Source: a virus
Taxonomy: Duplodnaviria > Caudoviricetes
IMG/VR virus record: IMGVR_UViG_3300017978_000114
Span: 1-34,645 of that record
Direction: 5' to 3' (one strand)
DNA length: 34,645 nucleotides
In this document: piece by piece, positions 2,872 to 34,645 of the stretch
Numbering within the stretch: the first letter of the stretch is position 1
Layout of the letters: the number at the start of each line of letters is the position of its first letter
Made by a program: the position numbers and the translations under genes
Notes under the pieces: model-generated
Told to the model about the DNA's origin: nothing
Database searches by the model: none
What the model saw: only the letters and a program-made list of their open reading frames with translations

Positions 2872-3252
2872 CTAGCCTAGGTCTATCTGAACTCTGATGT
2901 CACCAGCGACTTGAACCTGTGATCTATCTATCGGCTTGAACCCAGCGCGATCTAGCAAATCCTTAGCCGCTTCTAGCTGAACATACTCACTCTTAGCGCT
3001 CTTAGCTAACCCAGCGACCTTACCTACTGCCATCGCTGCGTGCATACTGAATACCTCTGCTGTCTGCTGCATCAGATACTGCTGCACATGGGGTGTCTTC
3101 ATCGCCTTCCACGCAGTCACTCTTCCGCTGTTCCCTTCGGAGTATCCTGCTTCTTCTGCGGCTTTTGTCAGGTTACCGCCGTTTGCAACATACGCTTCAA
3201 CCAGCGCCTTCTGTCTTGTGGTTAGCTTACGCTGTTCTAGCGCTCTAGACAT
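2872..3252 (-). CDS. terS: Terminase small subunit
   Basis: LTTRQKALVEAYVANGGNLTKAAEEAGYS HTH, AAKDLLDRAG motif, C-terminal beta strand; first gene of the operon leading to terL. Confidence 0.85.
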   Translation of the reverse strand: MSRALEQRKLTTRQKALVEAYVANGGNLTKAAEEAGYSEGNSGRVTAWKAMKTPHVQQYLMQQTAEVFSMHAAMAVGKVAGLAKSAKSEYVQLEAAKDLLDRAGFKPIDRSQVQVAGDIRVQIDLG

Positions 3253-3303
3253 ATCTCATGGCCCCCCCTGATCCCCCCCATAATCACCTCCTCCAAATGG
3301 CTG

Positions 3304-3315
3304 TCAACGCACAAA
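3304..3315 (-). promoter_or_regulatory. Putative late promoter motif TTTGTGCGTTGA, running into TTGACA, upstream of terS
   Basis: One of four copies, each upstream of a late unit. Confidence 0.7.
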
Positions 3316-3330
3316 CCCTGCTATCGCCCT

Positions 3331-3360
3331 TTGTTACAGGCAATCGTGATAAGGCATACT
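3331..3360 (+). promoter_or_regulatory. Putative sigma70-type early promoter (TTGTTA-N18-CATACT)
   Basis: Partial consensus match at the divergence point between late and early arms. Confidence 0.4.
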
Positions 3361-3409
3361 AAAAGCGTTCATCACGGTCTCCAAGATTGGTTTGCTTGGC
3401 ACCTCTGGC

Positions 3410-3644
3410 GGTCTCCTGTTGCTGCGGCCACCTCGCCCTTCATGCTGGCGTCGCACCAGCGGTAACAGTTCGCAAGTATAATCCTCTTGCACAGTCGCTG
3501 TTGCTCTGTGCGTCTCCGTTCCGCCCTCGAACGCCTCCGCCTTGGGGGGATTACACTTGCGAACTGCAAGCCTCCTTCGTCGGTTACTCGCAGGTGCGTC
3601 TTGCATTCATGGCGAGGGTGGTCCTCGCCAACAAACAGGAGACC
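3410..3644 (+). ncRNA. Long nested fold-back structured leader of the first early gene
   Basis: Nested inverted repeats 3410-3420/3634-3644, 3428-3437/3611-3621, 3453-3466/3583-3597, 3466-3486/3546-3566. Confidence 0.65.
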
Positions 3645-3649
3645 TAGAC

Positions 3650-4057
3650 ATGACCAAGCAAACCAACCTTGTCGACCTCAAGCTCGCCATCATCAAATAC
3701 CACAATGCAAACGAATACCTAGAAGTCGCAATCGCTCGAGACGCCTGCTTCACGAGTCACAACGCCCTCATGTGGAAGCGCACTGGTCAGGGTCAGATGT
3801 TGGACCTGACCGCTGAGATCAAAGAGCTTCTGCCTCAGCGCGGGCAAGAGATCACCGATGTCAAACTCGACCGCCTGCTGTCGCGCTATGAGCAGATGGA
3901 AACCGAGCTTGCCATCCTGCAAGAGCGTCACGATGCGGACAAGGCAGTCTACAAGATCATCGCTCAGGACGAGTGGTCCGCTAAGCCCAAGCGCACCCAC
4001 GTCAGCGAAGGCCACGGCATCGACAGCCGCCTCGCCAAGTTCGGGTTCGCAGCCTGA
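3650..4057 (+). CDS. Hypothetical first early protein (coiled-coil, 135 aa)
   Basis: ATG 3650 with AGGAG RBS; phage-like codon use; followed by a hairpin. Confidence 0.85.
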   Translation: MTKQTNLVDLKLAIIKYHNANEYLEVAIARDACFTSHNALMWKRTGQGQMLDLTAEIKELLPQRGQEITDVKLDRLLSRYEQMETELAILQERHDADKAVYKIIAQDEWSAKPKRTHVSEGHGIDSRLAKFGFAA

Positions 4058-4067
4058 ACCCCCACGG

Positions 4068-4089
4068 GGGGGCGCAAGCCCCCTCTTCA
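4068..4089 (+). terminator. GC hairpin with GCAA tetraloop (possible terminator or processing site)
   Basis: GGGGGC-GCAA-GCCCCC then TCTTCA; weak U tract. Confidence 0.5.
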
Positions 4090-4281: not shown

Positions 4282-4473
4282 ATGAATGATGAACCAATCT
4301 TCCCATACCACCCAGACTATGGGTTGCCTAACGACTATCGAAGCAAGGCTGTGCTGCTGTCCATCCAGTATGGGGTGAAGCGGGCATCCGATGAATGCAA
4401 AGTATCACCATCAACAATCTACAAATGGCGGGCCGACATGGGCCTTATCAAAAAGAGGAACGCAAATGTTTGA
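4282..4473 (+). CDS. Small HTH DNA-binding protein
   Basis: GVKRASDECKVSPSTIYKWR HTH pattern; AAGGA RBS. Confidence 0.75.
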   Translation: MNDEPIFPYHPDYGLPNDYRSKAVLLSIQYGVKRASDECKVSPSTIYKWRADMGLIKKRNANV

Positions 4474-5296
4474 CATGATCCACAACGACTACAATTTTCC
4501 GGTGGAAATGCAGCCTATCTATGATGGGTTTGGCAACACCATTCCCGATCAACGCTGCGTCATGCGGACTGATACCAACGAGGTGCTTGGTGTGCATGGC
4601 TCTCGCTATCAGATCGTTCAGCATGACGATGTGGTCAACAGTCTGATGGATGCACTCAAGACTGCAAACATTAGCCAAGACTACACGACCAAGTTCACTG
4701 TTGCTGAAGGTGGCCGCAAGTTGCGCGGCGAAATTCTCTTCAATGACCTGACTGTCCAGCCAAAGGTAGGTGACTACGTTAAGTTCCGCATCAGCTTCTT
4801 CAACAGCTACGATGCAAGTTGGGCATTCAGCCAAGCAGCAGATGGCCTGCGCTTGTGGTGCATGAATGGCTGCACCAATGCGGAACATGCAGCCGTGTCT
4901 CGCTTCAAACACACGCAGTCTATCAACATCGAAGGCTCAGCCACGAAGATGATGCTTGGCTTGGACACTTTCATGAACCAGCCTGATCGCTGGCGCAAAT
5001 GGATGTCAACGCCTGTTACTACTGACATGGCCGAGACATTTTTTAAGGCCACTGTTGCTAAGGCATACACGCAGCAACAGGCTGGCAAGACCAACGAGAA
5101 ACAGCTTGAGCGTTTGCTTTCTATCTATGGCACCGAGGCTGACAACTTGGGCGGCAACAAGTGGGCCTTGTATAACTGCCTGACCTACTGGGCTAGCCAC
5201 ACCAGCGACCTGAAGAATCCTGAAGTGGCCCGCCGCAATCGTGAGGATGCGATTGCCAAGGCAATGCAACACAAACTCTGGGGAGAAATCGCATGA
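4466..5296 (+). CDS. DUF932/DUF945-like phage/plasmid protein
   Basis: RTDTNEVLGVHGSRYQIVQH, FFNSYDAS, RLWCMNG, FKHT, NKWALYNCLT motifs; GAGGA RBS. Confidence 0.85.
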   Translation: MFDMIHNDYNFPVEMQPIYDGFGNTIPDQRCVMRTDTNEVLGVHGSRYQIVQHDDVVNSLMDALKTANISQDYTTKFTVAEGGRKLRGEILFNDLTVQPKVGDYVKFRISFFNSYDASWAFSQAADGLRLWCMNGCTNAEHAAVSRFKHTQSINIEGSATKMMLGLDTFMNQPDRWRKWMSTPVTTDMAETFFKATVAKAYTQQQAGKTNEKQLERLLSIYGTEADNLGGNKWALYNCLTYWASHTSDLKNPEVARRNREDAIAKAMQHKLWGEIA

Positions 5297-5517
5297 CGAC
5301 TATAGTTTCAAAGCACAAGATCACAACTCTTAGACAGTATGTGAACAGGTTCAATGACTTCACTGTCTATATGTTTGTCGGCGTTGATGCGCGAGGCGAT
5401 CAGGTTTGCGTGGAATTCTATCACCACGATGGAGACACACTGGTTTGCGAACCAATCGAAAAGAAAGACTATCGTTCAGAGGAGAGAAAACATGAAGATG
5501 TCACGCCAACACTTTGA
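5293..5517 (+). CDS. Hypothetical protein
   Basis: ATGA overlap, GGAG RBS. Confidence 0.7.
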   Translation: MTTIVSKHKITTLRQYVNRFNDFTVYMFVGVDARGDQVCVEFYHHDGDTLVCEPIEKKDYRSEERKHEDVTPTL

Positions 5518-10783: not shown

Positions 10784-11043
10784 CTGACGACAAGGAACTG
10801 ATCGCACGGCTGCGGGGTGCCTGCTACTTGGCCTTTGATGACGGGACCAATGACTTCGGAACAGCACCCGAAGCCGCCGACCGCATCGAAGCCCTGACCG
10901 CCGAGCGGGATGTGCTTCGGTCTGCACTAAACCGCATTCGCCCTATCCCAGAAAGAATTTTGCGCGGCATTCCTGTTCGCGATTTAGCAGAAACACTGGC
11001 AGAAGCTGACAGCGCGTTGATCAAAGGAGAGAGCCATGAGTGA
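10780..11043 (+). CDS. Modular hypothetical protein (AADRIEAL ... IKGESHE)
   Basis: ATGA overlap; shares motifs with the next gene. Confidence 0.75.
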   Translation: MTDDKELIARLRGACYLAFDDGTNDFGTAPEAADRIEALTAERDVLRSALNRIRPIPERILRGIPVRDLAETLAEADSALIKGESHE

Positions 11044-11302
11044 CCAAACATGCTGTGGCGCTTGCGGCTATCCAGTACGTGCGACCAAAGAAATGGCTTG
11101 CGATTGGTGCCGCAAATCCGCCGCCCGCATCGAGGCTCTGACTGACAAGCTGGCGAAGGCGGAAGCTGGGCTGCTCGCCATTGCTAAGCGCGATGAGCAA
11201 ATGATCTGGGGCGAAGACTATGAGGTGGAAGAAGCATTCAAAGATATGCGCGACATCGCCCTCGCCACCCTCGCAGAGATCAAAGGAGAGAGCCATGACT
11301 GA
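11036..11302 (+). CDS. Modular hypothetical protein with CxxC pairs (AARIEAL ... IKGESHD)
   Basis: AAGGAG RBS in repeated junction. Confidence 0.75.
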   Translation: MSDQTCCGACGYPVRATKEMACDWCRKSAARIEALTDKLAKAEAGLLAIAKRDEQMIWGEDYEVEEAFKDMRDIALATLAEIKGESHD

Positions 11303-11492
11303 CCTGCAGAAATATACCGACGAAGAACTGCTACGCGAGTTGGTTCGCCGTAATGGGCTACGGTATGCACCGAGGAGCCGCACCATGCACCAGCACGAAG
11401 TGTTGCTTGGCATAGGCAAGAGCAACCACTGCTACCTCACGTTCACAGACCTGACTGACGTGACAGCGTTGATGGGGGAAAGCCATGACTGA
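11295..11492 (+). CDS. Hypothetical protein (DLQKYTDEELLRELVRR)
   Basis: AAGGAG RBS in repeated junction; ends GESHD. Confidence 0.75.
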   Translation: MTDLQKYTDEELLRELVRRNGLRYAPRSRTMHQHEVLLGIGKSNHCYLTFTDLTDVTALMGESHD

Positions 11493-11658
11493 CATCCGCG
11501 TCTTGAAGGGCGACGGCAAGAGGGCCGAGGACGTGACCGGGGAACTGGGTGATCGGATCAAGGCTCTGATCTATGAGTATGAGGGTCGGATGCCTCTCGC
11601 CGCAGCCGTTGGTGTCCTGCATCTAGTATCTTACGAAATCACAAGGGACAGCGACTAA
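11485..11658 (+). CDS. Hypothetical protein (57 aa, MTDIRVLKGDG...)
   Basis: Manually read; overlaps both neighbours. Confidence 0.7.
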   Translation: MTDIRVLKGDGKRAEDVTGELGDRIKALIYEYEGRMPLAAAVGVLHLVSYEITRDSD

Positions 11659-33863: not shown

Positions 33864-34645
33864 CTACATCCTAGCCCAGAGTCCTTGCCTGCGCTTAGGC
33901 TTATCTTGCCGCGCAAACACGTCAAAGTCACGCTTGGCGACTGTAACCTGCGCTGGTTTCTGGCTATTCATCAAGGCTCGTCCCTCGCCTGCGCCGAGAA
34001 GAAGATACTGCAAAGCGTCATGGACGTGGCTGAACATGTTCTTCTCTGGCTTGTCGGCATACCGCTCACCAGAAACTTCCATGCGCTTGTAGGAATAGCC
34101 GCCCTCGAAGCCCTTGATGATAGTGGTGCAGCGCCGATCCAAGAGAAACGCAGGCTTGCCTTCGACCATCTTGGTAAGCTGAGAAGAAACAGCTTCAATC
34201 CGAAGGTCCGGCGAGTTGGAGTGCGTAGGAAAAGCCCTCAGTCCAGCGCCTCGCAAGATATGGAACGGCGTTGATTCATCGGTCTGCGCTCTGAAATCGC
34301 CAGCCGGATCACCATAGATGATAGTTTCGCCAGCCGCCGCAAATCTATTTGCCAGTTCATTGCGTAGAACCTCAGCAAACCTGACGATGCCCATATCAAT
34401 GGCGACAATCTCAGACTGAATCAGCCACCGACCTCTGACCTTCTGGCCAATCGCAGCCGCAGGCGTAAGACCAAAGTCCAATCCAACATAGACAGGCTGG
34501 CCCGCCGCAATCGGAATCTCTTCCTGAGCAACGTGAGCCTCTGTCGCAAACATGGGATACACTGGCTTTCCATCCTGAATGGTGCCAAGGCGGTTCATCA
34601 CATAGACATCAATCCAGCTTTTGGTCTTACCCTGAATCAAGTTCG
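33864..34645 (-). CDS. terL: Terminase large subunit C-terminal nuclease part (copy B, 5' end beyond the window)
   Basis: VGLDFG, YGDPAG, HVHDALQY; about 95% aa identical to copy A by eye. Confidence 0.95.
   Translation of the reverse strand, partial: NLIQGKTKSWIDVYVMNRLGTIQDGKPVYPMFATEAHVAQEEIPIAAGQPVYVGLDFGLTPAAAIGQKVRGRWLIQSEIVAIDMGIVRFAEVLRNELANRFAAAGETIIYGDPAGDFRAQTDESTPFHILRGAGLRAFPTHSNSPDLRIEAVSSQLTKMVEGKPAFLLDRRCTTIIKGFEGGYSYKRMEVSGERYADKPEKNMFSHVHDALQYLLLGAGEGRALMNSQKPAQVTVAKRDFDVFARQDKPKRRQGLWARM
33967..34645. repeat. Diverged direct terminal repeat, copy B (pairs with 1-679)
   Basis: Ungapped colinear match. Confidence 0.95.

Follow-up and report, generated by a model that had tools for sequence, protein, structure and literature searches.

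A conserved fold-back of about 320 nt was analyzed in front of the first early gene, termed here gene X, of a 34,645-nt viral DNA stretch (IMG/VR record IMGVR_UViG_3300017978_000114; hereafter, the window), which is a nearly complete ~34-kb podophage genome with the early genes on the plus strand. We propose, with a probability of about 0.62, that this fold-back is a single-stranded DNA (ssDNA) promoter for the RNA polymerase of the host, with a transcription start near position 3609. The parts of the element, in window positions, and the gene behind it are the following.

3366 to 3687, minus strand: whole fold-back rod; from the folds and strand asymmetries, the working molecule would be the template strand as ssDNA.
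3366 to 3420, minus strand: non-coding mirror of the Shine-Dalgarno sequence (SD), start codon and first 13 codons of gene X, recognized by arm comparison.
3470 to 3475, minus strand: -35-like TTGCGA, located on the 3' (non-template) arm and pairing with 3557-3562; TTGCRA in 44 of 45 aligned leaders (46 of 61 leader clusters were picked by this hexamer itself).
3453 to 3469, minus strand: paired 17-nt spacer ending in TG (3455-3454, the extended -10 position); spacer of 17-18 nt in 40 of 45 leaders.
3447 to 3452, minus strand: degenerate -10 position GACGCC, whose A-11 at 3451 faces a mismatch (T3599 on the plus strand).
3599 to 3611, minus strand: template side of a mismatch bubble, from the pairing profile, with a putative plus-sense start near A3609.
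3487 to 3545, minus strand: variable apex, with ~80 nt between the cores here; in a subfamily it is 20 nt long and has a GC(GNA)GC tip.
3567 to 3583, minus strand: side hairpin from the template arm, with a C(GAA)G triloop flanked by G.A/G.A in the sequence.
3610 to 3630, plus strand: local hairpin, predicted 5'-terminal stem-loop of a short mRNA, kept in 60 of 61 leaders with compensatory changes.
3650 to 4057, plus strand: gene X, an open reading frame for a 135-aa all-helical orphan protein of no family (structure model pLDDT 89).

The initial annotation had described at this place a nested fold-back of ~235 nt. The fold-back is real, but the actual structure is larger and covers 3366-3687. 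Its inner pairings were found as originally described: the arm 3410-3420/3634-3644 pairs perfectly over the ribosome-binding site (RBS), with AGGAG at 3637; 3428-3437 pairs with 3611-3621 with a one-base bulge; the 21-bp core 3466-3486/3546-3566 shows two departures from perfect pairing; and two apical hairpins are present (3489-3494/3506-3511 and 3517-3521/3529-3533). A further stem, 3453-3466/3583-3597, is imperfect. Towards the base, 3376-3399 pairs with 3654-3677, and the pairing stops at the K-L-A codons (codon 13). Because the rod spans 3366-3687, its left arm repeats in inverted form the SD, the start codon and the first 13 codons, and the sequence at 3375-3382, previously read as a second anti-SD copy, is in place but belongs to this mirror. 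When both strands were folded and compared with shuffles, as had been recommended, the stretch 3367-3652 was better than all 200 dinucleotide shuffles, with z values of -6.4 (plus strand as DNA), -5.0 (plus, RNA), -7.7 (minus, DNA) and -7.6 (minus, RNA). In agreement with the statement that no named RNA family was recognizable, an Rfam search with 4227 families and E up to 10 returned nothing over the rod and three chance matches, all outside it, and 6S RNA was not found in the genome. In a sliding fold (240 nt, step 120) the rod ranked only 7th in the window, and the same scan revealed no second rod in the window and none in MEP301.

Relatives were collected with a profile of protein X, taking the best 80 of 114 viral and the best 80 of 113 metagenomic loci, and 97 distinct leaders with at least 280 nt upstream were grouped into 61 clusters by 12-mer overlap. 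One of them, L085, was dropped from most counts for its rearranged left arm, leaving 60 leaders, 58 of which have 420 nt upstream; in this locus (96-426) the right arm is normal, the left arm is replaced and the core hairpin alone is left, a natural case of rod loss. All 97 leaders fold below the mean of six shuffles each, and the position of the rod is fixed between the divergent terS gene and gene X. The TTGCRA core is present in 46 of the 61 clusters, and the other 15 have rods of other sequence built on the same plan. The comparison of homologous leaders that had been suggested showed that pairing is conserved and that the stems covary. RNAalifold on plain MAFFT alignments found double changes in 16/26 and 7/24 consensus pairs, recovering only the core and the local hairpin and missing the indel-rich outer stems, and in arm-to-arm alignments, which are biased towards pairing, the spacer columns showed three to four different Watson-Crick pair types each. 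A second natural allele was observed in stem 3453-3465/3583-3597 (L082; runs X1, X2 and X6); in L082 both arms are altered and pairing is preserved. The mirror spans the first 13-20 codons, and across leaders, as judged by eye, pairing usually stops at the K-L-A codons. An earlier test of the extension of the rod into the gene gave no information because the control extended equally far; in the comparison used instead, coding positions +0 to +32 showed in 49 of 59 cases a closer match to the upstream arm than did seven control segments.

The closest isolate is the SAR11 (Pelagibacter) phage EXVC031P Hodr (OQ414635), cultured on HTCC1062, with identities of 66% for TerL and 52% for the capsid protein. 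Hodr contains a gene X homologue (E 8.5e-13 versus profile A2), the same layout and a rod with a z value of about -12, and rods are also present in nine relatives of its clade (9 of 10 loci had enough flank). Among 52 viral matches to the core pattern, 32 carry X or terS, and the others looked unrelated. In L176 (reverse strand, ~1400-1540) and L197 the same core rod adjoins terS; the L176 rod precedes a 174-aa gene that was not detected as an X homologue, and its mirror follows the start of that gene. In GTDB genomes the core pattern gave 125 loci from 21 of 64 parts, none of which matched any of 11 window proteins; among the matches listed they were REP-like or chance palindromes, and these loci were rejected as relatives. 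Contigs of Planctomycetes, Ktedonobacteraceae and Saccharibacteria (L215-L291) carry abundant REP-like palindromes, in multiple copies per genome, that show the core pattern by chance.

The selected molecule is most likely the minus (template) strand, as DNA. With DNA parameters the fold of the minus strand surpasses that of the plus strand in 92 of 97 leaders, with RNA parameters in 77 of 97, and the same holds for 10/10 loci of the Hodr clade; window shuffles also favor minus as DNA, by 2.4 kcal/mol. In a strand-neutral fold, the isolated oppositions read on the minus strand were 36 G.T versus 7 A.C (7 versus 7 in shuffles), and the isolated mismatches of full rods (n = 58) were 105 G.T versus 6 A.C. 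For the leaders that bear the motif (L054 excluded), the coding mirror gave ratios of 164:22 for G.T:A.C, 155:44 for G.A:C.T and 22:4 for G.G:C.C, the exception being T.T, which exceeds A.A (50:21). If an exposed minus strand were deaminated, the G.T:A.C ratio could rise, but not the G.A:C.T ratio. The arm base that faces a template G is A in 72 cases and T in 32, a preference that selection for G-U pairs in an RNA would be expected to reverse according to established pairing energetics. Mini-hairpins of the type X-C(GNA)G-X' in the apex and side zone number 38 on the minus strand (31/60 leaders) versus 2 on the plus strand, with 10.3+-3.3 in shuffles, and among their closing pairs only C-G is enriched (38 versus 6/7/14). 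In the excerpt of PMC13037366 considered here, GNA triloops are the only ones that form such mini-hairpins in DNA, with melting temperatures of 70-76 C, and the tested RNA counterpart is far weaker; since the C-G-closed GNA loops match this rule, they point to DNA rather than RNA. In 21 of its 38 occurrences, the hairpin behind gene X, which served as an internal control, carries on the plus strand a GCAA, UUCG or UACG tetraloop, and the plus strand of the rod shows no excess of UUCG/GNRA loops over its minus strand.

The initial annotation had mentioned as an alternative an Frpo-like single-strand promoter. This option is the one favored by the evidence, although on the minus strand and with elements other than the TATAAT box that had been pointed out, which is present at 3477 but in only 1 of the 46 leader clusters having the core (nAnAAT in 11). 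As a working -10, TATAAT was discarded because it is not conserved and its minus-strand partner reads TGTAAT, without A-11. A consensus promoter scan found nothing within the rod, and a sigma54 reading of TTGC was rejected because no upstream GG-type -24 box was seen by eye. The -35-like hexamer is TTTCGA in the remaining 1 of 45 leaders, and its partner copy is more variable. At the end of the spacer, T-15 is found in 34/45 leaders (paired 0.91) and G-14 in 38/45 (paired 1.00), and behind it A-11 in 34/45 (paired 0.38). Pairing is 0.26-0.78 (at most 0.65 in all but one case) over a bubble of ~14 positions and then 0.83-1.0, and 253 of 448 oppositions in the bubble are purine-purine. The open-complex bubble of sigma70 promoters matches this pairing pattern. 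The full TG.xA pattern occurs in 25 of 45 leaders versus 4.0+-1.9 in shuffles, a figure that is inflated by kinship. In a test that makes no use of the hexamer, a paired TG plus an unpaired A at -58 to -46 from the ATG was present in 22/60 leaders versus 1/60 with the strands swapped, with 16 and 21 such sites elsewhere; by eye, the same combination was observed in rods of unrelated sequence (L120, L141, L149, L130, L039 and L036). In duplex DNA, the side hairpin at 3567-3583 places the -35 and -10 of the plus-strand copy farther apart, and in the subfamily mentioned above the 20-nt tip replaces the entire apex. The boxes are clearer in the AT-rich Hodr clade, where they come close to the canonical form. 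In Hodr, TTGTTA-16-TATATT is found on the non-template arm only, and this exact form occurs in 0/9 relatives. In 9/9 of these relatives TTGA|TC-17/18-TAC(T/C)TT arises on the non-template arm, but only if looping out removes a hairpin of 24-27 nt, and the plus-strand copy has C in place of A-11. The host of the window phage is probably an alphaproteobacterium, judging from its kinship to Hodr, and alphaproteobacterial promoters often lack T-7 according to an excerpt of PMC8407463. The metatranscriptome contigs, all from one study, include none over 3310-3612 and one (X18, depth 2.8) over 3625-3944 without a loose left end, and they were not used as evidence.

In the mechanism that we envisage, the template strand would fold into the rod when the plus strand is missing, offering to the host RNA polymerase a -35 (TTGCRA) in paired form, a spacer of 17-18 bp, the TG and a bubble that is already open. 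The host holoenzyme would recognize these elements and transcribe from near 3609 towards the rod base and into gene X; at its 5' end the mRNA would have the 3610-3630 hairpin, and its SD would be freer. This local hairpin (3610-3617/3623-3630), previously proposed as a mutually exclusive state that frees the RBS, is indeed perfect and conserved, but it fits the 5' end of a short mRNA and not an alternative state. RNA polymerase on a single-stranded template makes extended hybrids, and the mirror of the RBS and the first 13-20 codons may act as the non-template strand through which the new RNA is released. The ribosome would load before the polymerase leaves duplex DNA, the 80-100 bp of duplex after the start allowing the RBS to emerge. 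R-loops at single-stranded ends are described in the available part of PMC10570047. Resynthesis of the plus strand would abolish the promoter, the RBS would be buried in any read-through RNA, and protein X would be made only during the single-stranded phase. The predicted probability that the SD is unpaired is 0.00 in a plus RNA from 3371 versus 0.41 in one from 3609, and the occlusion of the RBS that any read-through plus-strand RNA would still show may provide a secondary lock.

A candidate for the site at which the strand could be exposed abuts the base of the rod.

3356 to 3365, plus strand: TACTA(A/C)AA motif, a candidate nick, cut or binding site; CTA(A/C)AA in 54 of 58 leaders.

This motif is conserved more widely than the rod sequence and often occurs in two to three direct copies, 9-12 or 16-17 nt apart, with one exact copy in the window genome. 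Both the Caulobacter -10 consensus GCTANAWC and the CCTAAAG repeat at the T7 ends are similar to it; from its sequence it may be a nick site, a pac/TerS site or a -10 without a -35, a -35 upstream of it being found in only 2 of 56 leaders. Speculatively, the plus strand would be removed in the 5'-to-3' direction from a nick or cut at TACTA(A/C)AA or from an entering genome end, and degradation proceeding this way from the left would leave precisely the minus strand intact. Among solved structures, small terminases that we take to be those of SF6 and PaP3 are similar to TerS, and this likeness might, again speculatively, locate a packaging end close to terS and make the early arm the first to enter. 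A programmed ssDNA phase, in which a nick or cut at the motif or end-chewing by a host nuclease starts the resection and resection switches on the first, probably protective, gene X, is a doubtful extension of the promoter proposal, and we offer it only tentatively. Steps in contig depth near 3200-3300 were inconsistent across four runs, and the 125-bp repeat of the related Skadi phages, as presented in an excerpt of PMC10504331, leaves the ends undecided here. Repeated palindromic boxes of the GTGACGTAGCGTCAC type, possibly regulator sites, were observed between terS and the rod in L062, L064-L068, L056, L075, L041 and L046.

Several observations weigh against a host-polymerase promoter on ssDNA. 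The TTGCRA core is missing from 15 of the 61 clusters, several of which have no clear -35, and the clusters are related, which means that the counts are not independent events. The -10 is poor in the family of the window, with T-12 in 5/45 and T-7 in 0/45 leaders, and the -10 score of the non-template arm did not differ significantly from that of the plus strand (21:12 with 12 ties, p 0.16; in a second comparison, 9:3 with 3 ties, p 0.15). The G.T share of isolated mismatches (31%) fails to separate DNA from RNA; the ribosomal RNA control for G-U failed, since the DNA pipeline without G-U misses rRNA helices, and the plasmid control is small (18 oppositions). The Hodr clade is almost without GNA loops (1/10), and the promoter pattern of its relatives was chosen after viewing the same sequences, which come from close kin. 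The TACTA(A/C)AA motif is absent from this clade and is thus not needed everywhere. Contig ends show no excess near the rod, with left and right end distances alike, and no known step renders this part of a dsDNA podophage genome single-stranded.

The same ssDNA rod might alternatively serve replication or end processing, as a single-strand origin primed by RNA polymerase or primase, a roadblock preserving the single-stranded state, or a snap-back primer in the duplication of a terminal repeat, for which the T7 M hairpin is a precedent. The strand and DNA signatures fit such a role equally well, the rod adjoins terS and the repeated motif, and the 35 window proteins scanned matched no primase, helicase or polymerase family; moreover, class 1 ssDNA promoters prime, and class 2 (ssp2) blocks complementary synthesis, according to an excerpt of bioRxiv 10.64898/2026.01.09.698686. 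A replication role is compatible with the ssDNA promoter. As an explanation in its place, however, we consider it rather unlikely, since it accounts neither for a bubble fixed 40-55 nt before the start codon with the 5' hairpin and SD behind it nor for a mirror that follows the first codons, and the single orientation of all loci argues against flip-flop of a hairpin end. The main option of the initial annotation, a two-state leader RNA switch of the plus strand, would have a transcript from ~3371 fold and bury the RBS until the local hairpin forms. Such an RNA folds well with the SD fully occluded, the local hairpin covaries, and TA(A/C)AA at 3360 could serve as a -10 without T-7. We nevertheless regard it as quite improbable, because wobble, mismatch and loop patterns are optimized on the opposite strand, leaving the plus strand with destabilizing A.C and pyrimidine-pyrimidine oppositions and with the complements of the GNA loops. 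No upstream promoter with a -35 that could produce this leader was found (the 2/56 given above), Rfam provided no match, the last base pairs of the rod fall in the would-be untranscribed discriminator, and the local hairpin alone could not open a rod of 148 kcal/mol.

An antisense or 6S-like RNA of 320-400 nt, running on the minus strand from inside gene X to TT(T/G)TAG and either mimicking an open promoter or pairing with the X mRNA, would agree with the optimization of that strand, and its central purine-rich bubble resembles 6S RNA. It could also count on a TG-n-(T/A)A at a suitable distance within gene X and on a short T-run after the stem, but the former is forced by conserved Y/F-H codons and has no -35, half of the tails read TTGTAG, the triloops are of DNA type and no 6S match was obtained. 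An invariant -35 sequence is also not expected of an A-form RNA, and we give this possibility as little credit as the leader RNA. Even less probable is a functionless quasi-palindrome whose arms are kept in step by template switching or gene conversion. The mirror identity is equal at all three codon positions (0.78-0.80), and an allele with both arms swapped circulates in three runs, which speaks for this explanation; copy-correction, however, is strand-neutral, would erase the bubble, cannot yield asymmetries of 164:22 and 155:44, and gives no account of the fixed bubble, the C-G-closed GNA loops or a promoter formed only on folding. It may instead be the means of keeping the arms alike. Equally remote appears a cruciform arm extruded from supercoiled duplex with the help of SSB (the protein that binds single-stranded DNA) or a helicase, as in the N4 early promoters, without loss of a strand. 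N4 promoters have GCGGAGC-type loops on the template strand, according to an excerpt of PMC13037366, and no ssDNA phase would be necessary, but extruding a mismatch-rich repeat of 320 nt is costly, both strands must fold although the plus strand is de-optimized, and the large virion proteins matched no virion RNA polymerase family.

The surroundings of the rod and gene X contain the following features.

2872 to 3252, minus strand: terS, terminase small subunit (PF03592), divergent neighbor; on the left side of the rod in 43 of 60 loci, with many truncated loci among the others.
3280 to 3307, minus strand: sigma70-like leftward terS promoter TTGACA-16-GATTAT outside the rod, from the promoter scan.
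4069 to 4089, plus strand: terminator-like hairpin after gene X with a GCAA tetraloop; similar hairpin in 38 of 54 relatives.
4466 to 5296, plus strand: DUF932 gene (family match), downstream neighbor; right of the rod in 30 of 60 loci, many others being truncated.

The DUF932 family also occurs in the leading region of F. The T7-like head and tail genes, terL and terS are all on the minus strand of the window, and the gene layout agrees with the description of HTVC010P-type phages in the consulted part of PMC8477408. No RNA or DNA polymerase, primase or integrase family was matched by the 35 proteins scanned. When the virion proteins of this 34-kb genome were scanned for RNA polymerase families none matched, and one virion protein of 836 aa has no family at all. 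The sequencing runs that contain the window phage are mostly freshwater/aquatic metagenomes. A near-consensus leftward terS promoter lies just outside the rod also in Hodr (L339, ~5380-5410), and if the linear genome ends near terS, the late genes would be reachable from it only after circularization. The window ends (1-300 versus 33967-34266) repeat the terL region at only 85% identity, which suggests that two strains were merged in the assembly and that no true terminal repeat is present. Three near-identical 27-nt repeats (11019-11045, 11278-11304 and 11468-11494) cover the RBS and start codon of small early genes and are likely recombination cassettes. Protein X, whose relatives form 78 clusters at 50%, gave no family in Pfam, PHROG or NCBIfam, only generic helical-hairpin matches in the structure comparison, and only matches under 0.8 in the Atlas. 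A Gam-like identity was discarded, as the Mu Gam Pfam matched just 1 of 81 members (E 0.009), and so was a plasmid origin, as a comparison with 72,556 plasmids gave no match to gene X or to the rod.

Conjugative plasmids are the known carriers of ssDNA promoters for the host polymerase, and there single-stranded entry explains them. The same device in ~60 divergent leader clusters of widespread marine and freshwater podophages would point to an unrecognized single-stranded stage early in the infection by dsDNA phages. If true, it would give a testable function to the unexplained site-specific nicks of podophages and a sensor of DNA-end attack. The leaders would also constitute a large natural alignment of ssDNA promoters, with a pre-opened bubble and a non-template strand over the RBS, from which rules could be deduced, and a cultured model exists in Hodr on HTCC1062. 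In a literature search whose coverage left out most subscription journals, no host-polymerase ssDNA promoter was found described in a dsDNA phage.

The known systems closest to the rod are the klcA/ardA leaders of F, pESBL and ColIb-P9, which are class 2 ssDNA promoters (ssp2) with starts mapped in pESBL, as reported in the available part of PMC12672017. Like ssp2, the phage element is a long imperfect template-strand rod directly before an early gene, with a TTGC(A/G) -35 adjoining a GC(GNA)GC tip, the F klcA tip being identical over 12 nt to phage loci L062/L065, and with a -10 position on the 3' arm that is mismatched with the template arm and points to the rod base; the placement of the ssp2 boxes is our own reading of the folded leaders. 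The tip pattern, which was drawn up after both sets had been viewed, has one occurrence in the F stretch and two in the ColIb stretch, and 15/61 phage clusters contain it. In contrast to ssp2, the phage rod has a spacer of 17-18 instead of 15, a weaker -10 in the family of the window and a wider bubble, it reaches over the SD and 13-20 codons, while the klcA rod stops ahead of the SD, and it belongs to a tailed dsDNA phage genome without conjugative ssDNA entry. A blastn search of the rod against plasmids gave only two short matches, of 23 and 35 nt, and the 12-16-nt tip alone is common with class 2.

With the class 1 promoters Frpo1/Frpo2 of F and ssi1-3 of ColIb-P9, as they appear in excerpts of PMC9849209 and PMC11541004, the element shares a 300-nt template-strand rod with a better fold than that of its complement, degenerate boxes that folding would rebuild, early genes behind the rod and a DUF932 gene nearby, but it has no sequence similarity to them, no A/T-rich UP-like apical stem and a different -35. 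The N4 early promoters, in the cited excerpt of PMC13037366, are also template-strand DNA hairpins with a GNA triloop, used for first-wave transcription in a dsDNA podophage; they consist, however, of a 5-bp hairpin read by the phage's own virion polymerase, whereas the rod found here measures 320 nt and has sigma70-type geometry, and the search for a polymerase gene gave none. Nick sites have been reported in phage tf (TACT/RTGMC, top strand) and in phiKMV-like phages (CCTA/CTCCGG), according to an excerpt of PMC3517423. As in these phages, the window motif starts with TACTA, often as CCTACT, on the top, early-coding strand of a genome with divergent early and late arms, but only the first 4-6 bases agree, there is one site or a short tandem array instead of ~14 dispersed sites, and nicking is here only a candidate function. 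Hodr shares with the window the layout and the rod, the latter of unrelated sequence, without the TACTA motif and unannotated in its record. Taken together, although by conjugative entry and by sequence it is not a member of the ssp promoters, the element would work like them.

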